Source of the DNA: Escherichia coli
GTDB taxonomy: Bacteria > Pseudomonadota > Gammaproteobacteria > Enterobacterales > Enterobacteriaceae
Length of the DNA: 64,000 bases
Assembly (NCBI RefSeq): GCF_016026235.1
Contig: NZ_CP065613.1
Direction: 5' to 3' (one strand)
Every line of letters begins with the position of its first letter. The stretch's first letter is position 1. This document shows positions 12,636 to 45,046 of the stretch, in pieces. Both the position numbers and the translations under genes were made by a program. Under the pieces are notes generated by a model that was not told where the DNA came from, searched no databases, and saw only the letters and a list, made by a program, of their open reading frames with translations.

Positions 12636-12791
12636 ATGAAGCAGCAAAAGGCGATGTTAATCGCCCTGATCGTCATCTGTTTAACCGTCATTGTGACGGC
12701 ACTGGTAACGAGGAAAGACCTCTGCGAGGTACGAATCCGAACCGGCCAGACGGAGGTCGCTGTCTTCGTAGACTACGAATCTAGAGAGTAA
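12579..12791 (+). CDS. mok: mok-like in-frame extended reading frame overlapping hok
   Basis: 70-aa ORF ending at the hok stop, as MokC extends HokC in E. coli. Confidence 0.4.
   Translation: MSHKCRLASYVPKGKEKQAMKQQKAMLIALIVICLTVIVTALVTRKDLCEVRIRTGQTEVAVFVDYESRE
12636..12791 (+). CDS. hok: Hok/Gef-family type I toxin
   Basis: MKQQKAMLIALIVICLTVIVTALVTRKDLCEVRIRTGQTEVAVF is near-identical in pattern to HokD/RelF; AAGGAG Shine-Dalgarno. Confidence 0.8.
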   Translation: MKQQKAMLIALIVICLTVIVTALVTRKDLCEVRIRTGQTEVAVFVDYESRE

Positions 12792-15832: not shown

Positions 15833-15909
15833 GGCCCTTTAGCTCAGTTGGTCAGAGCGAGCGACTCATAATCGCCAGGTCGCTGGTTCAAGTCCAGCAA
15901 GGGCCACCA
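15833..15909 (+). tRNA. tRNA with CAU anticodon (Met or Ile2, ileZ-like)
   Basis: Manual cloverleaf: acceptor GGCCCTT/AAGGGCC, anticodon loop CTCATAA, 3' CCA. Confidence 0.8.
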
Positions 15910-15910
15910 A

Positions 15911-15987
15911 CCACCACTAGCTCATCCGGATAGAGCATCAACCTTCTAAGTTGACGGTGCGAGGTTCGAGTCCTCGGTGGTGGGCCA
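15911..15987 (+). tRNA. tRNA-Arg (UCU)
   Basis: Acceptor CCACCAC/GTGGTGG, anticodon loop CTTCTAA, T-loop TTCGAGT, 3' CCA. Confidence 0.75.
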
Positions 15988-15989
15988 GC

Positions 15990-16065
<76 letters not shown>

Positions 16066-16068
16066 TAT

Positions 16069-16143
<75 letters not shown>

Positions 16144-21820: not shown

Positions 21821-22049
21821 CTTCCGGAGGATGGTTGTGAACCAGAATGATATTGAAGCCATGATCCATCGTTATATCAATGCGGAAATGGCAGTGCTGG
21901 ACGGAAAGTCCATTACTTTTAATGGTCAGCAGATGACCATGGAAAACTTATCCGAGATCCGACAGGGGCGGCAGGAGTGGGAACGTCGCCTTGCGACTCT
22001 GGCTGCGCGGCGACGGGGGACGCCGGGCTATAAACTGGCGAGGTTCTGA
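21813..22049 (+). CDS. Head-tail joining protein W-like
   Basis: Size and C-terminus RRRGTPGYKLARF resemble lambda gpW; start uncertain. Confidence 0.5.
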   Translation: MGDFRRMVVNQNDIEAMIHRYINAEMAVLDGKSITFNGQQMTMENLSEIRQGRQEWERRLATLAARRRGTPGYKLARF

Positions 22050-23553
22050 TGGCAATTCTTGATGATGTGATTGGTGTTTTTTCACCTGGCTGGAAAGCTG
22101 CGAGATTGCGCTCAAGGGCATTAATTCGTGCCTATGAGGCAGTGAAGCCTACTCGTACACATAAAGCCCGGCGGGAAAATCGTTCTGCCGACCAGCTCAG
22201 TAAGTACGGTGCAGTTTCCCTGCGGGAGCAGGCTCGTTTTCTGGACATCAATCATGATCTGGTAATCGGTGTTTTCGACAAACTTGAGGAACGGGTGATT
22301 GGTGCAAAAGGGATCGTTGTCGAACCCCAGCCATTACTGAAGAACGGTGATATAGCCACAGAGCTGGCAATGATTATCCGTCGCTTGTGGGTGGAATGGT
22401 CTGTCAGTCCGGATGTGACCGGGCAGTATACGCGCCCCATGCTCGAGCGTCTGCTGCTGCGTACCTGGTTACGTGATGGTGAAGTGTTTGCCCAGCTGGT
22501 TCGTGGTGCCGGCGGCGGGCTGGTGCGGACTGCTGGCGTGCCTTTCTGGATCGAGGCAATGGAGCCGGATTTTGTGCCCATGCTCAGTGATGAATCTGTG
22601 GGGTTGAATCAGGGTGTTTTTCTGGATGACTGGGGCAGACCGAAAAAATACCTGGTTTATAAAAATCATCCGACTACCGGGCGGCTGAGTGATACCAAAG
22701 AGATCGTTGCCGAAAATATGGTGCATCTGAAATTTACCCGTCGTCTGCATCAGACGCGTGGTACATCCATGTTGTCAGGTGTGCTGATGCGGATCAGTGC
22801 GCTTAAGGAATATGAAGATGCTGAGCTGACAGCGGCGCGTGTTGCTGCGGCTCTGGGGCTGTATATCCGTAAAGGAGATGGGCAGGATTATGAAGACGCC
22901 ACGATAAATAAAGATAATGACCGGGAACTGCATATCACCCCTGGCATTATTTATGACGATTTGCGCAAGGGGAAGATATTGGCATGGTCAAATCTGATCG
23001 GCCCAATCCTAACCTTGAAACTTTTCGTAACGGGCAGCTGCGTGCGGTGGCCGCAGGCAGTCGTATGAGTTTTTCCAGTGCGGCGCGCAATTACAACGGT
23101 ACCTACAGCGCTCAGCGACAGGAGCTGGTCGAGTCCACTGACGGGTATCTGATCCTGCAGGACTGCTTTATTGGTGCTGTAACCCGTCCCGTGTACCGGA
23201 CGTGGCTGAACATGGTGGTAGCAGCAGGTCTGCTGAAAATCCCGTCGGATGTGGATATGAAAACGTTGTGTAACGCAACATATTCCGGTCCGGTCATGCC
23301 GTGGATTGATCCGGTTAAGGAGGCTGAGGCCTGGAAAATCCAGATTCGCGGTGGAGCGGCGACAGAATCAGACTGGGTGCGAGCAGGTGGGCGTAATCCG
23401 GATGATGTCAAACGTCGGCGCAAGGCTGAAATTGATGAAAACCGCAAGCTGGGTCTGATATTTGATACCGATCCGGCCAGTGATAAAGGAGGCAGCAGTG
23501 TCGCAACGAAACGACAGGAGCCGCAGCACACCGACGGCCAGTCCGAAGAATAA
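22049..23553 (+). pseudogene. Portal protein, frameshifted at G-run 22969-22972
   Basis: Two overlapping ORFs (22049..23068, 22984..23553); one extra G makes a single reading frame of about 500 aa; position between W and protease. Confidence 0.6.
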
Positions 23554-23566
23554 TTCCTGGTTCAGG

Positions 23567-25557
23567 ATGCAGGCAGGTCACCAGAGTGACGCGGATATTT
23601 ATATTTATGACGAGATTGGTTTCTGGGGTGTTACGGCGAAGCAGTTTATCAGCGATCTGAATGCACTGGGCGATATCACCCACATTAATCTCCATATCAA
23701 TTCACCGGGTGGCGATGTCTTTGAAGGCATCGCCATTTTTAATGCACTGAAAACACATGGTGCGTCCATTACCGTTTATGTCGACGGTGTGGCGGCATCA
23801 ATGGCGTCGGTCATTGCGATGGTGGGAAACCCGGTCATTATGCCGGAAAACACCTTCATGATGATTCATAAACCATTTGGCTTTACGGGCGGTGATGCGG
23901 AGGACATGCGCACCTATGCCGACCTGCTCGATAAAGTTGAGGCGGTTCTGTTACCCGCTTATGCACAGAAAACCGGGAAAACCACCGATGAAGTTGCTGC
24001 CATGCTGGCGGATGAGACCTGGATGTCCGGTGCCGAATGTCTGGCACATGGATTTGCTGATCAGGTGACGCCAGCCGTTAAGGCAATGGCATGTATTCAG
24101 TCAAAACGTACAGAGGAATTTAAAAAGATGCCGGAATCCATTCGAAACATGATTACTCCGCCACGCAACAGTGCAACGCGTGAACCTGAAAACAAAAATA
24201 CTGCATCTCAGACACAGGAGCAGACTACGGCTCAGGTTGCCACAACCGCGACCACCACAAATGCACCTTCCGCAGATGAAAGCAGTATCCGTGCGCAGGT
24301 ACTGGCAGAGCAAAAAGCACGTGTGAGTGGTATTAATGAACTGTTTGGTATGTTTGGCGGGCGTTATCAGACATTGCAGGCCAGTTGTCTTTCCGATCCG
24401 GAGTGCTCGCTTGAGCAGGCCCGTGAGAAATTACTTAACGAAATGGGTAAGGAATTTTCACCATCAAATAAAAATACCCCGGCCCATATTTATGCCGGAA
24501 ACGGTAATTTTGTGGGGGACGGGATCCGCCAGGCGCTGATGGCGCGTGCCGGGTTTGAAAAAACTGAACGTGATAATGTCTACAACGGGATGACCCTGCG
24601 TGAATATGCCCGTATGTCACTGACTGAACGGGGTATTGGGGTTTCCGGTTATAACCCGATGCAGATGGTCGGGGCAGCGTTCACACACAGTACGTCTGAC
24701 TTCGGTAATATTCTGCTGGATGTTGCGAACAAAGCCATTCTGCAGGGCTGGGAAGATGCCCCTGAAACCTATGAACAGTGGACGCGGAAAGGTCAGCTGT
24801 CTGATTTTAAAATTGCCCATCGTGTGGGTATGGGGGCTTCAGTGCTCTGCGTCAGGTGCGTGAAGGAGCGGAATATAAATACGTTACTACCGGAGATAAA
24901 CAGGCCACGATTGCACTGGCGACCTATGGTGAACTGTTCAGTATCACCCGTCAGGCCATTATCAACGATGATCTGAATATGCTGACCGATGTCCCGATGA
25001 AACTGGGCCGTGCGGCAAAATCCACTATTGCCGATCTGGTTTATGCCATTCTGACGTCTAACCCGAAAATCTCCACAGATAATGTAAGTCTGTTCGATAA
25101 AGCGAAACATGCAAACGTACTGGAGAGCGCTGCAATGGACGTGGCATCGCTGGATAAAGCCCGCCAGTTGATGCGTGTTCAGAAAGAGGGTGAGCGTCAT
25201 CTGAATATTCGTCCTGCGTTCGTACTGGTACCGACGGCGATGGAGTCTGTTGCTAACCAGGTCATTCGCTCCTCAAGTGTCAAGGGGGCTGACATTAACG
25301 CCGGTATTATTAACCCGGTGAAAGATTTTGCGACCGTTATTGCAGAGCCTCGTCTTGATGATAACAGCCAGACCACCTTCTACCTGGCTGCGTCCAAAGG
25401 CTCCGATACGATTGAAGTGGCTTATCTCAACGGTGTGGATACGCCATATATTGATCAGATGGAGGGCTTCAGTGTGGATGGCGTGACAACGAAAGTGCGT
25501 ATTGACGCTGGTGTCGCGCCAGTTGATCACCGCGGTCTGGTGAAATGTACGGCGTAA
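23567..25557 (+). pseudogene. Prohead protease (ClpP/S49-like) - scaffold - major capsid fusion, frameshifted at G-run 24832-24836
   Basis: N-terminal ClpP-like GDVFEGIAIFNALKTHGASITVYVDGVAASMASVIA; capsid-like C-terminal part continues in ORF 24856..25557; one extra G restores continuity. Confidence 0.6.
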
Positions 25558-28425: not shown

Positions 28426-28763
28426 CGCGGGAAATGCAGTTTGTCATGCGGCTTGCCCGGGAGTTCCGGCGGGCAGACTGGCGGCGGATGCTGTCGGAAA
28501 TGTCGGCCACTGAGCTTGGTGAGTGGGGCGATTATTTCCGGATGCAGAGCTTCAGTGATGTGTGGATGGATGCGCAGTTTGCCTCGCTGAAGGCATTGAT
28601 CGTGAGAATGGTGTCCGGCAGCAGCGATGCTGCGGTGGCTGATTTCAGCCTTTTACCGGAAGAGAACGGGATACCGGAGCGAACGGACGAAGAACTGATG
28701 CATCTTGGGGAAGGTATTTCCGGAGGTGTGCGTTATGGACCAGATAGCCAACCTGGTCATTGA
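28410..28763 (+). CDS. T-frame of tail assembly chaperone GT (expressed as G-T fusion by -1 programmed frameshift)
   Basis: -1 frame opens at 28410 and overlaps the end of G; heptamer GGAAAAG at 28413-28419 sits where lambda has GGGAAAG. Confidence 0.55.
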   Translation, partial: AGKVLTREMQFVMRLAREFRRADWRRMLSEMSATELGEWGDYFRMQSFSDVWMDAQFASLKALIVRMVSGSSDAAVADFSLLPEENGIPERTDEELMHLGEGISGGVRYGPDSQPGH

Positions 28764-31700
28764 TTTGGGGATTGATGCGGCAGAGTTTAAAAATGAAATT
28801 CCCCGTATCAAAAACCTTCTGAATGGTGCAGCCAGCGATGCAGAACGGTCTTCTGCCCGTATGCAGCGTTTTATGGAGCGTCAGACTCAGGCCGCCCGGC
28901 AGACAACGCAGGCGGCTTCTTCGGCTGCAACAGCCGCATCCGTCCATGCGCAGACGGTGGAGAAGAACGCACAGGCTCATGAACGCATGGCCCGCGAGGT
29001 GGAGAAAACCCGCCAGCGCATGGAGGCGCTGAGCCAGAAAATGCGCGAGGAACAGGCGCAGGCCAGGGCACTGGCGGAGGCGCAGGATAAAGCGGCTGCC
29101 GCCTTTTATCGCCAGATTGACAGTGTGAAACAGGCCGGTGCGGGGCTTCAGGAATTACAGCGTATTCAGCAGCAGATCCGACAGGCCAGAAACAGTGGCG
29201 GGGTTGGTCAGCAGGATTATCTGGCGCTGATTTCGGAGATCACGGCGAAAACCCGTGCCCTGACGCAGGCAGAGGAACAGGCCACCCGGCAGAAAGCGGC
29301 GTTTATCCGCCAGCTTAAAGAGCAGGCAACCCGCCAGAATCTGTCGTCTTCTGAGTTGCTTCGCGCCAGGGCGGCTCAGCTGGGGGTAAGCAGTGCTGCA
29401 GAAGTGTATATCCGCAAAATGGAGCGGGCAGGAAAAGCCACACATTCGCTGGGGCTGAAAAGTGCGGCAGCCCGGCGGGAGCTGGGGGTGTTAATCAGTC
29501 AGATGGCGCGCGGCAATTTTGGTGCGCTGAGGGGATCCGGGATAACGCTGGCTAACCGTGCCGGATGGACAGGCGCACTGATGTCGCCGAAAGGCATGAT
29601 GACTGGCGGCGTTATTGGCGGACTTGTCGCGGCGGTCCTGGGTCTGGGTAAAGCCTGGCATGACGGCCGGAAGGAGGGCGAGGAATTTAACCGTCAGCTG
29701 GCGCTGACGGGACATTATGCCGGTGTCACTGTCGGGCAGTTGTGGAAACTCAGCCGGGCCATATCCGGGAATGGTATCACGCAACATGCGGCAGCCGGTG
29801 CGCTGGCACAGGTGGTGGGCAGTGGGGCATTTCATGGAAACGATATTGGTATGGTGGCGAAAGCTGCCGCACAGATGGAGCGATCGGTTGGCCAGTCGGT
29901 CAGCGATACCATAAATCAGTTTAAGCGGCTGAAGGATGATCCTGTAAATGCCGCGAAGGCGCTGGACAATGCGCTGCATTTTTTGACTGCCACTCAGCTT
30001 GAGCAGATACGCGTCCTTGGGGAGCAGGGGCGGTCCAGTGATGCGGCCCGGATCGCCATGTCTGCGCTGGCAGAGGAAACCGGTAAACGCACATCTGATA
30101 TTGATAATAATCTCAATGCGCTGGGTAGTACGCTGCAAACCTTGTCTGACTGGTGGAAGCAGTTCTGGGATGCGGCCATGAATATTGGTCGTGAAGACTC
30201 GCTGGATGCGCAGATTGATGCGTTACAGGAAAAAATTCAGCGCGCGAAAAAATATCCGTGGACAAACGCCTCCACACAGGTGGAGTACGATCAGCAGCGT
30301 CTTAACGATCTTCAGGAGAAAAAACGCCGGAAGGATTTGCAGGATGCAAAAGCGCAGGCAGAACGGAATTACCAGGAGCAACAGAAACGCCGGAATGCTG
30401 AAAATGCCGCGCTGAACCGGATGAATGAAACGGAAGCTGCACGACATCAGCGGGAAATTGCGCGTATTAATGCCATGCAGTACGCCGACCAGGCTGTCAG
30501 GGATGCGGCGATACAGCGTGAAAATGAACGTTACGAAAAAGCCATTAAGAAAAATACACGGGCAACCCGTAATGATGAGGCCACCCGGTTATTGCTGCAG
30601 TACAGTCAGCAGCAGGCACAGGTGGAAGGGCAGATTGCTGCTGCCAGACAGTCAGCAGGCATTGCCACTGAAAGGATGACTGAAGCGCATAAACAGCTTC
30701 TGGCCCTGCAGCAGCGCATCAGCGACCTGGGCGGGAAAAAGCTGACGGCAGATGAAAAGAGTGTGCTGGCCCGTAAGAATGAGCTGATTCAGGCGCTGAC
30801 GCTGCTGGATGTGAAACAGCAGGAGCTGCAGAAACAGACAGCGCTTAACGACCTGAGAAAAAAAACGGTTCAGCTGACCAGCCAGCTGGCAGACAAAGAA
30901 CGTGCACTGCGTGAGCAGCACAATCTGGATATTGCCACTGCAGGTATGGGGATAAGCAGCGGCAGCGCTACCAGGCACAGTTGCGCATCCGGCAGGAATA
31001 CCGGCAACAGTTGCAACAGCTTGAGAATGACAGTCGCCAGAAAGGCACTTACGGGACGGAGGACTACCGGAGGGCTGAGGAGGTGCTGAAGGGGAGCCTG
31101 AAGCGACAACTGAATGAAAACAAACGCTACTGGCAGGAACTGGAAGTGGCGCAGGGCGACTGGAAAAACGGTGCCATGCGGGCGTTTCAGAATTTTACGG
31201 CGGATGCGGATAATGCGGCGGGAACGGCAGAACAGATGTTTACAGTGGCATTCAGCAGTGCCGGTAATGCACTGGCGACATTCTGTACCACCGGTAAGCT
31301 GAATTTTAAATCCTTTACCTCTTCCCTGTTGTCAGATATGGCCAGAATTATGGCACAGATGGCCATGATGCAGGCGGTAAAGGGCGTCGGTTCTTTATTC
31401 GGCTTCACGACTAATGCTGATGGCGGTGTTTACCAGTCTGCTGATTTGAGTCGCTACAGTGGCACGGTGGTTAACCGTCCGACGTTTTTTGCTTTTGCAA
31501 AAGGCGCGGGTGTGATGGGGGAAGCGGGACCTGAAGCCATTCTGCCACTGCGTCGCGGTGCTGATGGTAAGCTGGGGGTTGTGGCGGATACTGGTGGTTC
31601 AGGCATGGTGATGTTTGCCCCGCAGTACAACATTGAGATCAATAACGATGGCACGAACGGGCAGATAGGTCCGGCTGCCCTGAAGGTGGTTTATGACCTC

Positions 31701-31775
31701 GGGAAAAAAGCGGCCGCGGACTTTATGCAACAGCAGGCCCGTGATGGTGGCCGGTTAAGTGGAGCATACCGGTAA
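28735..31775 (+). pseudogene. Tail tape measure protein H, frameshifted at G-run 30948-30951
   Basis: Long Ala/Gln-rich coiled-coil ORF 28705..31089 continues in ORF 30981..31775; one extra G gives a continuous protein of about 1010 aa. Confidence 0.7.
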
Positions 31776-34163: not shown

Positions 34164-37575
<3,412 letters not shown>

Positions 37576-38244: not shown

Positions 38245-38270
38245 TTAGCCAGGTAACACAGTGTTATGAC

Positions 38271-38296
38271 AGCCCGCTGGTTCAGGCGGGCTTTTT
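38271..38296 (+). terminator. Rho-independent terminator after lom
   Basis: AGCCCGC-TGGTTCAG-GCGGGCT followed by TTTTT. Confidence 0.55.
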
Positions 38297-38307
38297 GTGG
38301 GGTGAAT

Positions 38308-39720
38308 ATGGCAGTAAAGATTTCAGGTGTACTGAAAGATGGGGCGGGTAAACCTGTCGTAAATTGTGCGATTGAACTGCGGGCCAGAAGAACCAGTCCG
38401 ACCGTTGTGGCACACGTTGTTGCCACTTGCGTGACGGACAATAACGGTGCTTATGTGATTGAGGCTGAGCCGGGGTATTACGAGGTTGCGCTTCACTGTA
38501 ACGGCTGGCAGCCAACCCGTGTCGGGGATATTGATGTGGCACCGACTGATGCACCGGGGACACTGAACGCGTTTCTGAATGCACCAAAGGATGGTGATTT
38601 ACGTCCGGAGGTGATGAAGCGCTTTGAGGAAATGGTGGCGCAGGCGCAGCAGAGTGCCGGGGCTGCAGCCGGAAACGCACAGCAGACGGCGCAGAATGTG
38701 GCGGCAGCCGCAACGGCCCGTGATGATGCACAACGTTTTGCGGAGAATGCCAGACAGGATGCAGTTGCCACTGCAGAGGACAGAAAGGCCACTGCGGAAG
38801 ACGTGAAAAGCACGGGGAAAAACGCCGTCTTATCCGGTCAGCGTGCACAGGCAGCCGCAGGTTATGCCCGCGCAGCAGAACAGGCCAAAAATGACATTGA
38901 TGCTGCGCTGACCGGCACTCTGAAAACGGCTAACCATCTGTCAGAAATCGCAGCAGCAGGCGAAAAGGCACAACAGAAGTCCCGGGATAATCTGGGGCTG
39001 AAAAGTGCGGCCACGATGGAAGCACAGAGCGACATTTACGACCGGACAAAAGGCCGTCTGGCGATACCCGGCGCATTCGGCTTTGGGTGTGCTTTTCTGC
39101 CTGAAGATGTTATCCGTTTTGACACTAAGAGTGATTTCCTGGCCTGGGTAAGGAATGCGCTGCCAGGTGAGTATTCCGTTGCTGGCCGCCTGGGCATCAT
39201 ACCCGACACACGGTTTGAAGGGGTGCTCAGCATCCGGTGGACTGATGCACGCCCTGAGACAACAGAACCGCGGTACAGAGCCAAATCCCTTACTTTTTAC
39301 GGCATTAACGGCCCCATTTATCACACCCGCTACTGCTACTGGCCCATATCCAGACTGACTGACTGGGTGAAAATAAATATAACCACAGAAGATATTATTT
39401 ACAGAATCGTGGCGAGCTCTGTCTGCAACAGATGGGGAGACCCTGACATTGGCGGGCTGATTATTGCTGCGTACCAGGGAGAAGCTGACGGTGATAAAGT
39501 CATCAGACTTGTCAGGGGGCAGTCATACAGAGGCTCACGACTGGGACCGGTGGGGATTTCAGTGCCCAGTACTCCCACCGGAACGCATATAGCATACCCA
39601 CAATTTTTCATTACGGGATGTTCAGAGCATTCATTACCGGGGTCATATTGCGCCCTGTCCGGGGTGCCGGATGCACATGTCTCTGGCGCAATGCCCGGGC
39701 TTTTTATTCGCACATCGTGA
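38308..39720 (+). CDS. Side tail fibre protein (Stf-like)
   Basis: ATG at 38308; N-terminal prophage tail-fibre domain, Ala/Gln-rich central region. Confidence 0.55.
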   Translation: MAVKISGVLKDGAGKPVVNCAIELRARRTSPTVVAHVVATCVTDNNGAYVIEAEPGYYEVALHCNGWQPTRVGDIDVAPTDAPGTLNAFLNAPKDGDLRPEVMKRFEEMVAQAQQSAGAAAGNAQQTAQNVAAAATARDDAQRFAENARQDAVATAEDRKATAEDVKSTGKNAVLSGQRAQAAAGYARAAEQAKNDIDAALTGTLKTANHLSEIAAAGEKAQQKSRDNLGLKSAATMEAQSDIYDRTKGRLAIPGAFGFGCAFLPEDVIRFDTKSDFLAWVRNALPGEYSVAGRLGIIPDTRFEGVLSIRWTDARPETTEPRYRAKSLTFYGINGPIYHTRYCYWPISRLTDWVKINITTEDIIYRIVASSVCNRWGDPDIGGLIIAAYQGEADGDKVIRLVRGQSYRGSRLGPVGISVPSTPTGTHIAYPQFFITGCSEHSLPGSYCALSGVPDAHVSGAMPGLFIRTS

Positions 39721-39730
39721 GGAATGCACC

Positions 39731-40294
39731 GTGGAAATTAAAAAAATCATTAATCCCCGTTATACCGAAAGTGGCGCAGTAGACTGTGACGTTTTTTTTG
39801 ACGACAGGGACCAGGCAGTTCCCTACACAGCCACCGCTGATGATGTCGCACCGACGGGTCAGCAAATCTGGCAGGAACTGCAAAGTGGCAAATGGGGTGA
39901 GATAGCCCCATTCACTGTGACACCAGAAATGCTGGAAGCGGCCAGAGAGGCCAGACGTCAGGAAATTGAAGCATGGCGCGCAGAACAGGAGGCGAAGCCG
40001 TTCACGTTTGAATGGAACGGTCGTATCTGGAATGCTGGTCCCGACTCACTGGGCCGCCTGTCCCCGGTAGTCATGCTGGCAAAATCTGTCACAGCACAAA
40101 CACATATGGCGTGGAGCGATGCCGATAATCAGCAGGTGAAACTGTCGATGCCGGAACTGGAAGAACTGGCGGCAGCAATGGTGCAGGCGCAGGTCGATCG
40201 CAACGATGAGATTTATCGCCGTCAGCGGGAGCTGAAGGAAGAGCTGAATAGTCTGAAGGATTTGAATTCGGTTAGGAATTTTATCGTGGAATAA
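39731..40294 (+). CDS. hypothetical protein following stf (possible tail fibre assembly/chaperone)
   Basis: GTG at 39731 after GAGGAA; function inferred only from position. Confidence 0.35.
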   Translation: MEIKKIINPRYTESGAVDCDVFFDDRDQAVPYTATADDVAPTGQQIWQELQSGKWGEIAPFTVTPEMLEAAREARRQEIEAWRAEQEAKPFTFEWNGRIWNAGPDSLGRLSPVVMLAKSVTAQTHMAWSDADNQQVKLSMPELEELAAAMVQAQVDRNDEIYRRQRELKEELNSLKDLNSVRNFIVE

Positions 40295-40494
40295 CAGAAG
40301 CTGCGGCACGTCGTATGCAGGAACGTGCCGCGGTTGGCTGGTAAACTTTCGATAGTGCGAGTATTGAATGATTTCTAGGCGTTATCGATTTTACGTATTT
40401 TTTGCATGATAGAATTCGTACCTCCTCCCAACGACCTTCCATGGCTTTCCGGACTTCTGTAGGCTGGCGGACGATGCTGTCCTCGGATGTTGTG

Positions 40495-41352
40495 CTAATT
40501 GGGTGATAACAGATCCTGTGTATGGGCGTTTCCCTTTGTGCGTGCGTTGATGCTGGTAACGGTAAACGTCATGATGAACACGACCGCGAATAAGACGACA
40601 ATCGTCGGAGCTGGTGCGCTGTCGATAAAAAAGGACAGCCAGACACCAGTCATTGACACTATTACCGATATGCCAGTCGCCAGTAGGAGCGCAATATGAA
40701 AGCGTTGTGTCAGGAGTACTGCAATGGCGCCAGGCGCAATGAGCAGAGAAATAGAGAGAATGATACCTACTGCTTTCAGCGTCGCCACAATGGTCAGGGA
40801 AACCATGCACAGCAGCCCATAATGCAGCCATCTCGTATGCAAACCGCTTACCTGCGCCTGTTGATAATCAAAGCTGAACAGCAAAAAATCCCGCCATTTT
40901 ACGCTAATAACAAGTGTAACCAGCCCGGCAATAATCACCGTCTGGATTATATCGCCGATGGTTATCCCGAGCATGTCGCCGAAAAGAATATGGTCAAGAT
41001 GTACGTCTGGTTTGATTGCAATATACAAGATCAGACCTGCGGCAAACATGCCAGAAAAAACAATCCCCATAACTGTATCTTGCTTGATTCGGCTGTTGTC
41101 TTTCAGGTATCCCGTCGCCACCGCGCAGAATACTCCGGCGACGAATGCCCCTGTAGCCAGAGGTAACCCCAGAATCCAGGTAAGCACGATGCCAGGAAAA
41201 ACCGCATGACTCATCGCGTCACCCATCAGTGCCCAACCTTTCAGGACCAGAAAGACCGACAGCAGCGCACAGGGTATGGAAACTACCAGTGAAATCAGCA
41301 GTGCGTGACTCATAAAGGTGAACTGCAGTGGCTCCAGTAATAATGCCATCAT
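40495..41352 (-). CDS. sitD: Mn/Fe ABC transporter permease SitD
   Basis: 285-aa polytopic membrane protein; last gene of sitABCD; 4-bp overlap with sitC. Confidence 0.85.
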   Translation of the reverse strand: MMALLLEPLQFTFMSHALLISLVVSIPCALLSVFLVLKGWALMGDAMSHAVFPGIVLTWILGLPLATGAFVAGVFCAVATGYLKDNSRIKQDTVMGIVFSGMFAAGLILYIAIKPDVHLDHILFGDMLGITIGDIIQTVIIAGLVTLVISVKWRDFLLFSFDYQQAQVSGLHTRWLHYGLLCMVSLTIVATLKAVGIILSISLLIAPGAIAVLLTQRFHIALLLATGISVIVSMTGVWLSFFIDSAPAPTIVVLFAVVFIMTFTVTSINARTKGNAHTQDLLSPN

Positions 41353-42206
41353 GAGCGATCCTCCAGCGCTTTATGCGCACGCCGACGATTTGCCAAAAGT
41401 CCATGGGTGGGCGCAAATACAAATGCTAAAAGAAACAGCAGTGTCTGCGCCACCACGATGATTCCACCTGTCGCGCCGTCCAGAAAGTAACTGACCCACG
41501 CGCCGAGGAAACTGGTTACACTGCCAATAGTTACAGCAATTATGAGCAGGCGGGGAAAACGATCGGTTAACAACCATGCTGTTGCACCGGGAGTCACCAC
41601 CAGACAGATCACCAGAAAGGCACCAACCGTTTGCAGCGCCGCAACGGTCGAAACCGACAGCAGGGTGAAGAAGAGGATTTTTAATCTGCCCGGATGTAAT
41701 CCAATAGCACGGGCGTGATTCTCGTCGAAAAAGGTCACCATAAGATCTTTCCATTTGAAAAAAAGCACGATGATCGAGAGAATGCCAATGATAGTGAGTT
41801 GCAGGATATCCGCCGGATCGATTGCCAGAATATTGCCCAGGACGATGGTCTGAATGTTCACGGATGTCGGGTTCAATGACACCATAAACAGCCCCAGGCC
41901 AAAAAAGGACGAGAAGATCAGGCCGATGATGGCATCTTCTTTTAAGCGGGTGCGTTGGTTAAGAAACAGCATGCTGCCCGCTGCCAGTCCGCCGGAAAAG
42001 AAGGCTCCCAGAGAAAACGGAAGCCCCAGCATATATGCCCCCGCAACACCCGGGACAATAGAGTGCGACAGCGCATCGCCAATCAGCGACCAGCCTTTTA
42101 GCATCAGATAGCATGACAGGAAAGCGCAGAGACCGCCGACCATTGCCGAGACCCACATCGCATTGAGCATATATTCATAGCTGAAGGGTTCCAGTAGCAC
42201 GTTCAT
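41349..42206 (-). CDS. sitC: Mn/Fe ABC transporter permease SitC
   Basis: 285-aa ABC-3 family permease. Confidence 0.85.
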
Positions 42207-43030
42207 CTTGCTTCCCTCTGCACCGCTGACGGTCGATGTGCCACAAAAGGGCGTTCATCGTCAGTAATAATGCTTTCTTCCGAGCCGTTAAGTGTGACAT
42301 GGCGCAGTACGCCGCTAAAAGCCAGCTCCAGGTTCTCGGCTGTAAAAGTGGTGTCTGTCGGCCCGCTTGCCAGGACGGTGCCTTTGACCATGACCGTATA
42401 ATCGCAAAATGTCGTGACTGAGCCGAGATTGTGCGTTGAGACAAGCATCGTTTTGCCTTCCGCGCGTAACTCCCTCAACAGGCTGATGATTTTCGCTTCG
42501 GTTTTCACATCAACGCCGGTAAAAGGTTCATCCAGCAGGATCACATCACCCTGCTGTGCAATCGCTCTCGCCAGAAAGACGCGTTTCTTTTGTCCACCGG
42601 AAAGCTCGCCGATTTGACGATGGCGAAAATCCACCATATCGACACGTTCCAGCGCATCGGTGACAATCTGACGATCCCTCTTTTTGGCTATACGCAACAT
42701 ACCCATATGCCCATAGCGGCCCATCATCACCACATCTTCCACCAGTACAGGAAATGACCAGTCAACCTCTTCTGACTGAGGGACGTAGGCAACCAGGTTT
42801 TTCTGTAGCGCCTGTCGCGTGGGAATACCCAGAACAGATATCTTTCCGCTGGTCAGACGCACAAATCCCATAATCGCTTTAAACAACGTCGATTTTCCGG
42901 AACCGTTTACCCCAACCAGAGCGGCAATAGATCCACTTGGTACTGTGAAGGATGCATCGCGCAGTGCTGTGTGCCCGTTACGCCAGGTGACAGTAACATC
43001 ATTAACGACAATGCCTGCAGATTGCATCAT
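42203..43030 (-). CDS. sitB: Mn/Fe ABC transporter ATP-binding protein SitB
   Basis: Walker [10 protein letters not shown], signature LSGGQKKR, Walker B ILLDEP. Confidence 0.85.
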
Positions 43031-43944
43031 TATTTCTCCCTTTTCCCGGCTTTAATTCCCTGTACCAGCGTACTGGTAGTAACCTTAAGAAGGTCGATAT
43101 ACGTAGGTACCGGGCCGTTTTCTGTGCTCAGGGAATCGACATAGAGCACACCGCCGTAGTGTGCGCCGGTTTCACGCGCAACCTGACGCGCTGGTTTATC
43201 GGAAATCGTACTCTCGCTAAAGACTGCCGGGATATGATTTTTCTTAACTATATCAACAACCTTACGTACCTGCTGCGGTGTTCCTTGTTGATCGGCATTA
43301 ATCGGCCACAGATAAAGCTCTTTTAGCCCCAAATCGCGTGCGAGATAAGAAAAAGCCCCTTCACTGGTGACCATCCATCGCTGATTCTCAGGGAGTTCCG
43401 TAATCTGCTTACGCAGGGGGGCAAGGGTTTGGGTAATCTTGGCTTTATAAGTATCGGCATTACGTTGGTAGGTTTGTGCATTTGCCGGATCGTATTTTAT
43501 CAACGCATCACGAATATTATCGACGTAAATCAGAGCATTATCTGGCGACATCCATGCATGGGGATTAGGTTTGCCCTCATAGGGTCCTTCGGTGATCCCT
43601 ACTGGCGTCACACCCGAAGAGACAATTACTTCTGGAACCCCATTGAGATGCTGGTAAAAGCGTTGGAACCACAATTCCAGATTCATACCATTGGCGAGAA
43701 TCAGTTGTGCCCCCTGCGCACGTTTAATATCGCCAGGGGTAGGCTGATACTCATGAATTTCTGCACCAGGCTTGGTTATGGATGAGACTTCTGCAGCATC
43801 TCCAGCCACGTTTTTGGCCATATCCGCGATGATGGTAAATGTTGTAATGACCTTGAATTTTTCAGTTGCACTTGCCTGAAATGCGATCGAGCAGGTGAGG
43901 GCGAGGCACCCCAAGAGCATGGTTACTTTTTTTATTGAGTGCAT
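43030..43944 (-). CDS. sitA: Periplasmic Mn/Fe-binding protein SitA
   Basis: 304 aa, signal peptide, cluster A-I substrate-binding family. Confidence 0.85.
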
Positions 43945-43976
43945 AATTTAGTACCTATAGTGAGCAAAATTAGAAC

Positions 43977-43998
43977 AAACATAGCAACGGCTATGTTT
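43977..43998. promoter_or_regulatory. MntR box upstream of sitA
   Basis: Perfect inverted repeat AAACATAGC-AACG-GCTATGTTT, 33-54 bp upstream of the sitA start codon. Confidence 0.6.
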
Positions 43999-44020
43999 TA
44001 TAGCATAACCTATACAAAAT

Positions 44021-44039
44021 GAAAATAATTATCATTAAC
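44021..44039. promoter_or_regulatory. Fur box upstream of sitA
   Basis: GAAAATAATTATCATTAAC matches Fur consensus GATAATGATAATCATTATC at 15 of 19 positions. Confidence 0.5.
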
Positions 44040-44497
44040 AGCTTTGAGGCCTAAAACAGGGATTAGGTTGTTTCCTGCTGGCGACATGATATTGAGGAAA
44101 AAAGTAGAGCAGCTATTAGGCTTTGAAATGACTTTATGAGGAAAATTGTTGATGGCAAAAATGGGGCAAAACGCTGTAGAAGGGGCAAAAAAGGGGCAAA
44201 AAAAGAGTGGGTTATCGTAGCTTATTGTTGTCGCTGATAATGTTTAACATATTGAAAAATAAATAAAATACTTATGAGTCAGATAGTTGTGATTTTTGCC
44301 CTTACTTGTTCAGATTGTATTGTTCTTTCTTGCTAATTTCTTGATTTTGCGACATTTAAAAGCGACTCAATTCGTTATATGGCATCAGAAGAGTATGCGT
44401 CATGCCGGAACGCCCAGCATAAGAAATCTGATATAAAAACTGTGGCGTGTATGGTACGGATTAGAGGGGAAAATGTCAGCACATTTGCGAAATGAAT

Positions 44498-44530: not shown

Positions 44531-45046
<516 letters not shown>

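Follow-up and report, generated by a model that had tools for sequence, protein, structure and literature searches.

Does a transporter operon that stands between the tail-fibre genes of a prophage and an ordinary chromosomal gene belong to the phage or to its host? The question is raised by a 64,000-nucleotide stretch of Escherichia coli DNA (NCBI RefSeq assembly GCF_016026235.1, contig NZ_CP065613.1; hereafter the window, by which we mean this whole stretch at its full length), in which the four genes of a sitABCD operon, coding for a putative Mn2+/Fe2+ ATP-binding cassette (ABC) importer, lie next to the chromosomal gene uspF. Uptake of manganese and iron by Sit helps E. coli and Shigella to resist oxidative stress and to grow inside host cells, and a prophage that carries sit is a textbook example of a phage-delivered fitness or virulence function that answers to the regulators of its host. 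An earlier note on this DNA had read the operon as prophage cargo under the control of two metal-responsive boxes. We conclude, with a probability of roughly 90%, that sitABCD is the cargo (or moron) of a lambdoid prophage of the Rac family, whose integration site is the 5′ end of ttcA, and that it is held there between the tail-fibre genes and the attachment (att) site.

The assignment to the phage rests on the placement of the att sites. In complete E. coli genomes with an empty site, where ttcA adjoins uspF and sit is missing, ttcA is annotated over the stretch that corresponds to the short ttcA remnant of the window (Table 1), and the sequence matches the window only from position 44306 rightwards. 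The far boundary was taken from E. coli O121 strain 201805972, which has a 100% identical sit, because an insertion sequence (IS) of the IS4-like type occupies the left end of the window. The gene order in that strain runs dbpA, ttcA, intR, xisR ... recE′ ... tail fibre, DUF4376, (IS66), sitDCBA, uspF; its attL lies in the 5′ end of ttcA, by intR and xisR, and shares a 43-nucleotide match with window positions 44306–44348. When the window attR, the O121 attL, the empty attB, and the attR of the K-12 Rac prophage are aligned four ways, the core is identical in the first three, and the sequence to its left is that of the phage in attR and that of the chromosome in attL and attB. Because the core lies beyond the sitA promoter, between sit and uspF, and is shared by attL and the empty sites, the operon together with its promoter falls inside the prophage, at least 266 bp from the boundary. 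Had the att site lain on the sitD side, sit would be chromosomal; the same empty-site and attL comparisons put this to the test, and the boundary that they returned is the one on the sitA side.

The flanks of the operon are in keeping with this placement. To its left, lambda-type morphogenesis genes end in J, Lom, a tail-fibre gene, and a gene with a DUF4376 domain; to its right follow uspF, ompN, and ydbK/nifJ. Comparison with K-12, which the earlier note had recommended for locating attR, puts the start of the common right end at position 44153, where similarity to K-12 begins, and leaves the core further to the right. The position of sit between tail-fibre genes and uspF is likewise as that note described it, and K-12 has stfR-tfaR-pinR-ydfK-ynaM there, with no sit. 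The arm that separates sit from the core carries several copies of GGGCAAAA, which are probably binding sites of the integrase (IntR).

How much of this right end is foreign to a Rac-type prophage could be delimited by BLAST against fetched loci. The segment shared with an icd-integrated prophage spans 40475–44141, and that shared with an IncF plasmid spans 40467–44159. Two segments, one made up of a strong hairpin with the sequence after it (40303–40381) and the other of the att arm (44153 onwards), are 3.77 kb apart in the window, whereas their counterparts in K-12 Rac and an O157:H7 ttcA prophage are separated by only about 40–60 nt. Sit is absent at this exact position from both relatives, and its presence in the window is therefore an insertion, of about 3.7 kb, which separates the end of the tail-fibre operon from the Rac-type att arm. 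Its place is filled elsewhere by pinR-ydfK-ynaM in K-12 and by three DUF1076 (NleG-type) genes in O157 (locus L007, 5007–7007); the slot between tail fibre and att site is a general cargo slot. Within the sit cassette there is no transposase or recombinase, and its ends show no terminal direct or inverted repeats beyond those found in shuffles, on which ground a transposon-like or integron-like cassette was rejected.

The cargo itself is intact. Four undamaged open reading frames (ORFs) on the minus strand together span 40495–43944 (3450 bp), and their DNA is 100% identical to the annotated sitABCD of O121 strain 201805972; other chromosomal copies, present in many genomes, are about 98% identical to this 3450-bp operon. 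RefSeq labels the homologous genes sitA, sitB, sitC, and sitD both in the O121 strain and in strain VL40, and the order of a substrate-binding protein, an ATPase, and two permeases is that of SitABCD/YfeABCD-type importers. The operon is thus complete, as had been claimed. The 4-bp gene overlaps claimed along with it are present at sitB/sitC and sitC/sitD (ATGA), but sitA and sitB overlap by 1 bp (TAATG).

Among the products, SitB reaches 593.7 bits against the NCBIfam model NF011630, an equivalog of Mn/Fe ABC ATPases with a cut-off of 393, while SitA, SitC, and SitD match Mn/Zn ABC substrate-binding and permease families of NCBIfam below the equivalog cut-offs and owe their names to identity with the RefSeq-annotated proteins and to homology with YfeA. 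Residues 24–297 of SitA align to Yersinia pestis YfeA (5UXS) with E = 3.7e-125. In this alignment SitA His64, His129, Glu195, and Asp270 fall on YfeA His76, His141, Glu207, and Asp282, which we take to be the metal ligands of that protein (the cluster A-I His/His/Glu/Asp site). By analogy with close homologues, from which transport itself is known, the sitABCD of the window would be a Mn2+/Fe2+ ABC importer (PMC3852070).

The composition of the operon gives no foreign signal in its GC content, which is 46–54%. Among the fetched loci (L025–L088), SitA is 65–76% identical to proteins of Rhizobium, Mesorhizobium, Bartonella, Brucella, and Pseudomonas, and the SitA proteins of Cedecea and Klebsiella, at 73–74%, are about as close to it as these. 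These identities hint at an old transfer of the sit operon between bacterial classes.

Upstream of sitA, the earlier note had pointed to a perfect MntR-type palindrome and to a Fur-box-like site, and both are there. The palindrome (box 2) reads AAACATAGC-AACG-GCTATGTTT with 0 mismatches and is the sole match in the 64-kb window even when up to 3 mismatches are allowed, where shuffles lead one to expect 0.02. On the sit sense strand the site reads AAACATAGCCGTTGCTATGTTT; the MntR operator of K-12 mntH, AAACATAGCCTTTGCTATGTTT, has the same arms and departs from it by a single base of the spacer. Read on the sit sense strand, the Fur-like site is GTTAATGATAATTATTTTC; it agrees with the consensus at 16 of 19 positions and is again the only match in the window, with 0 expected from shuffles. 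Directly upstream of box 2, at a centre-to-centre distance of 19 bp, lies a second, imperfect MntR-type palindrome (box 1), a detail that the earlier note had missed; this site too may be bound by MntR.

Conservation extends this pattern well beyond the window. Across SitA-encoding loci, sampled as one genome per species, the motif ATAGC-N4-GCTAT recurs 57–85 nt upstream of sitA in Enterobacter, Lelliottia, Pluralibacter, Shimwellia, Citrobacter, Cedecea, Klebsiella, and Erwinia, and the same enterobacterial loci have a Fur-like AATGATAAT.ATTTTC 20–40 nt further upstream than the MntR palindrome. In an alignment of 12 sit promoters from 10 enterobacterial genera, the ATAGC/GCTAT cores of box 2 are invariant except for one arm position in a single sequence, the ATAG and GCTAT cores vary little or not at all in either box, and the order of Fur box, palindrome 1, palindrome 2, and sitA is kept in nine genera other than that of the window. 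At rhizobial, pseudomonad, and other non-enterobacterial sit loci the MntR palindrome is absent, and most of these loci also have no good match to the Fur consensus. The reading of the boxes as metal-responsive draws on the mntH-identical arms, on this cross-genus conservation, and on the repression of sit through MntR and through Fur in Salmonella and Shigella that a review describes (PMC3852070); a Fur box upstream of phage-borne sit has also been reported (PMC6969025).

From the sequence and its conservation across genera, a sigma-70 promoter can be proposed within this block. Its −35 hexamer, TTTTCA, would fall inside the 3′ end of the Fur box, and its extended −10 element overlaps box 1, doubling as the right arm of that palindrome. 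The arrangement suggests a mechanism. The operon, convergent with the phage late operon and with a predicted promoter of its own, would be expressed independently of prophage induction. Fur would sit on the −35 hexamer and MntR on the two palindromes that cover the −10 element and the start region, so that repression would come about by occlusion: where metal is plentiful, either Fe2+-Fur or Mn2+-MntR may suffice to block RNA polymerase, and where both metals are scarce the operon would be on, with SitA capturing periplasmic Mn2+ or Fe2+ and SitBCD importing it. What can be read in the window is a sit operon convergent with the late operon, regulatory boxes of its own, and a hairpin between the two operons, which is probably a bidirectional terminator; expression in the lysogen is documented for the prophage Perceval only (PMC9928086).

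The same arrangement is widespread. Across 5426 complete E. coli genomes, with sit counted at a query coverage of at least 80%, the operon occurs in 2336 (about 43%), in 1682 chromosomal and 1060 plasmid places. The junction of sit, attR, and uspF seen in the window (the ttcA type) is found in 494 of the 5426, among them enteroaggregative E. coli (EAEC) strain 042, which has this junction with different tail-fibre genes upstream. A second context, a lambdoid prophage at icd with sit placed after its tail fibres, accounts for 740 genomes. In a phage collection, 28 records hold sit and 27 of these are phage genomes, exemplified by phage 1H12 with the order tail fibre, sitDCBA, a few small ORFs, and int/xis. 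The 28th, ON032529.1, or "Salmonella phage SPF_0923" (L092), continues from sit into uspF, ompN, and the pyruvate-flavodoxin oxidoreductase gene, and is a mis-delimited extract of an E. coli-type prophage rather than a packaged genome. Proteins identical to those of the window are also found in Shigella and E. coli records.

Prophage-borne sit is, in other words, common in E. coli, and it has already been described as a phage moron with a Fur box. Mathieu et al. found sitABCD, in every case with a Fur box, on 70% of the temperate lambda phages from infant-gut E. coli (PMC6969025), and in the LF82 prophage Perceval sit is a moron operon that is expressed in the lysogen (PMC9928086). The moron slot of lambdoid phages accounts for the spread of sit, which about 43% of complete E. 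coli genomes possess, at a small number of recurring sites as well as on plasmids.

The carrier has fared less well than its cargo. The genes for portal (22049–23553), tape measure (28705–31775), and J (34167–37575) are each split into two ORFs, which cover positions 8–341 and 343–529 of PHROG 21, 22–774 and 786–1056 of PHROG 24, and 263–1073 and 1173–1315 of PHROG 31, respectively; recE is truncated, with a product of 535 aa compared with about 1042 aa in relatives. On account of these three splits and of the truncated recE, the prophage is defective. It is unable to form particles, this copy of sit falls short of being packaged, and the operon, though of phage origin, by now amounts to a fitness locus fixed in the chromosome. 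A decayed carrier with an intact sit is a pattern that fits selection on the cargo after the decay of the carrier.

Several further observations concern this prophage and its kin. It contains four tandem tRNA genes at 15833–16143, for Met/CAT, Arg/TCT, Thr/TGT, and Gly/TCC. Its truncated RecE and its tail-fibre proteins have identical counterparts in a few E. coli records and relatives in Shigella; together with the IS load, this may point to an enteroinvasive or Shigella-like lineage. In O121 strain 201805972, an IS66 lies between the tail-fibre-assembly-like gene and sitD (L002, 42609–45188), and IS1 has deleted most of the middle of the prophage, with sit still 100% identical to that of the window.

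Could sit instead be a chromosomal island that the prophage abuts, the phage having integrated beside a pre-existing operon? It does stand side by side with chromosomal uspF, and the literature on the pathogenicity island (PAI) "PAI sit" describes an island found at several sites (PMC7545054). Yet sit is parted from uspF by a Rac-type att arm and the 26-bp core, in the empty-site genomes, which lack sit, ttcA stands directly beside uspF and similarity to the window starts only at 44306, and in the O121 strain attL-intR-xisR lies at the far side of the same element, all of which makes an island origin highly improbable. Another doubt touches the promoter, where the palindrome and the Fur-like site might be chance matches in AT-rich DNA or serve another role, such as a terminator-like hairpin; the region has a GC content of 36%, and a terminator scan indeed lists the box 2 palindrome. 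Chance is hard to reconcile with shuffle expectations of 0.02 (MntR) and 0 (Fur), with arms that are those of the mntH operator, or with box positions conserved across genera, a terminator upstream of sitA would be senseless, and published genetics has placed sit under MntR and Fur (PMC3852070). We find this account scarcely credible.

A more serious alternative holds that illegitimate or IS-assisted recombination brought sit into a Rac-like remnant that was dead by then, and that no particle ever bore it in the ttcA lineage; sit would then be cargo by its location and not by transduction. The defects of the window prophage are compatible with it, as are a VL40 copy whose tape measure is also frameshifted, a cassette devoid of repeats or a recombinase of its own, and the fact that the only "phage" record with a ttcA-type junction, SPF_0923, is a prophage extract that includes uspF-ompN. 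However, one and the same sit-attR junction adjoins one tail-fibre module in the window and VL40 and another in E. coli 042, it recurs in 494 genomes, and this variety and frequency fit an old junction that was handed down and reshuffled by lambdoid phages when they were still active; phages isolated as particles, moreover, have the same cassette in the same slot (PMC6969025). Late entry into a remnant is thus quite unlikely, and we retain the reading of sit as cargo of a once-active Rac-family phage. Some points do weigh against that reading or against its details. No intact ttcA-type phage with sit was found, and packaged, virion-borne sit is documented only for icd-integrating (Jouyvirus-type) phages. 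The genome's own attL lies outside the window, a search of the window for direct repeats that could mark it returned none, and the attL used here is that of a related strain. SitA, SitC, and SitD pass no NCBIfam model at its curated cut-off. A strict consensus promoter scan did not return the sit promoter, as the −10 hexamer ends in A, and control of this sit allele by Mn-MntR and Fe-Fur is putative, extrapolated from the boxes and from its relatives.

A conserved 127-nucleotide non-coding element at the end of the late operon (element X) lies on the sitD side of the cassette in the window; in phages of the icd type, among them 1H12 and p11A, it is found upstream of sitA. It spans 12656–12781 of locus L005 and 25392–25517 of phage 1H12. 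The ttcA-type and icd-type contexts differ at both junctions while the cassette ends are the same. The two contexts could go back to separate captures, or to a single one with later rearrangement. Because the same ends recur in two unrelated backbones, on opposite sides of element X, with no repeats or recombinase belonging to the cassette, one may go further and envisage a single defined cassette that was captured again and again into the tail-fibre/att slot, independently of a recombinase; in addition, the two MntR-type operators and the Fur box, whose arrangement is fixed across Enterobacterales, may give cooperative two-metal gating. We put this forward as a tentative and rather doubtful proposal. 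A separate candidate in the same region, the Shigella small RNA CssrB at 40277–40332, was rejected as a sub-threshold Rfam match (30 bits, against a gathering score of 76); this sole Rfam match begins in the final part of the tail-fibre-assembly-like gene and takes in the strong hairpin.

Table 1. Positions of the sit cassette, its candidate control sites, and the surrounding prophage and chromosomal features in the window
Feature	Position	Strand	Remarks
sit cassette	40475–44141	minus	About 3.67 kb; 97–98% identity to sit copies elsewhere
sitA	43030–43944	minus	304 aa; periplasmic Mn2+/Fe2+ substrate-binding protein; signal-peptide-like N-terminus
sitB	42203–43030	minus	275 aa; ABC ATPase; NCBIfam NF011630 equivalog
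sitC	41349–42206	minus	285 aa; permease
sitD	40495–41352	minus	285 aa; permease
Putative MntR operator (box 2)	43977–43998		Perfect 9-4-9 palindrome AAACATAGC-N4-GCTATGTTT
Second, imperfect MntR-type palindrome (box 1)	44000–44013		ATAGg-TTAT-GCTAT; from alignment of 12 sit promoters
Putative Fur box	44021–44039	minus	GTTAATGATAATTATTTTC; 16/19 to consensus GATAATGATAATCATTATC
Predicted sigma-70 promoter	43997–44025	minus	−35 TTTTCA (44025–44020); 17-nt spacer; extended −10 TGcTATAAA (44005–43997)
Rac-type att arm	44153–44305		97.5% identical to K-12 Rac right end; K-12 matches the window from 44153
att-arm repeats GGGCAAAA	44154–44202 (four direct); 44293–44301 (one inverted, beside core)		Common to K-12 Rac
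attR core	44306–44331		26 bp; identical in attR, attL, and attB; in 5′ end of ttcA
ttcA 5′ remnant	44302–44355	minus	Chromosomal; 17 codons, then stop in phage DNA; counterpart of K-12 ttcC′
uspF	44531–44965	minus	First chromosomal gene past the prophage; NF011581, 302.6 bits (cut-off 166), ORF residues 25–168
Defective Rac-family lambdoid prophage carrying sit	791–44305		Left part cut off by IS4-like element
IS4-like element (ISEc60 family)	1 to about 790		Cuts prophage recE (745–2352)
Tail-fibre gene	38266–39720	plus	PHROGs tail-fibre families; VL40 annotation
DUF4376 tail-fibre-assembly-like gene	39671–40294	plus	Last late-operon gene; convergent with sit
Late-operon hairpin	40303–40333		−27.4 kcal/mol, z = −4.8; common to K-12 Rac and O157 prophage
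Non-coding element X	40322–40448		127 nt; end of late operon; also in lambda, HK97, and Shiga toxin (Stx) phages

What the window adds to the published picture is detail: a location of attR to the base, the length of the insertion as compared with Rac, a decayed carrier with an intact cargo, and a second conserved MntR-like site. The points that it leaves for further thought are that second site and the movement of the cassette between phage backbones.

Set beside known systems, close relatives of the carrier are the O157:H7 prophage at ttcA and, at its right end, K-12 Rac; both agree with the window in the site of integration, the att core, the repeats of the att arm, and the hairpin of the late operon, but have no sit and other content in the slot. 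The sit of ColV/IncF virulence plasmids is the same operon at 97% identity; unlike that of the window, it is flanked by IS1 and Tn3 remnants beside the aerobactin genes, its promoter region is only about 87% identical, and its MntR box has one mismatch. The plasmid copy matches the window as far as 44159, to the first TGGCAAA of the att arm (L006 8650–8672 against window 44141–44159); when it was tested for a vestige of the Rac arm, the similarity past 44159 was not significant, which makes this a weak lead only.

Among chromosomal loci, the "PAI sit" of Shigella flexneri and enteroinvasive E. coli (EIEC) is likewise embedded in prophage remnants, IS-rich and much rearranged, at several sites of the chromosome, and is metal-regulated; a review that summarises Fisher et al. 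(2009) lists insertion at aspS/yecN, as opposed to ttcA/uspF in the window (PMC7545054). Salmonella enterica sitABCD, on Salmonella pathogenicity island 1 (SPI-1), and Y. pestis yfeABCD share the four-gene architecture and the transporter family of the window operon, but are chromosomal or pathogenicity-island loci and not prophage cargo. Repression by both MntR and Fur, as proposed for the window, applies to the Salmonella operon, whereas Yersinia is without MntR and Fur serves both metals (PMC3852070).

The closest parallel to the cargo is offered by the Jouyvirus-type coliphages (1H12, ev207, ev017, and Perceval of LF82), which carry the same 3.67-kb cassette at 98% identity, in the same slot after the tail fibre and before att/int, in the same orientation, and with the same Fur and MntR boxes. 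These phages integrate at icd and make particles, whereas the element in the window is of the Rac family, lies in ttcA, and is defective. Element X stands on the other side of the cassette in them, and the MntR box, a perfect palindrome in the allele of the window, has one arm mismatch in the icd-type copy.

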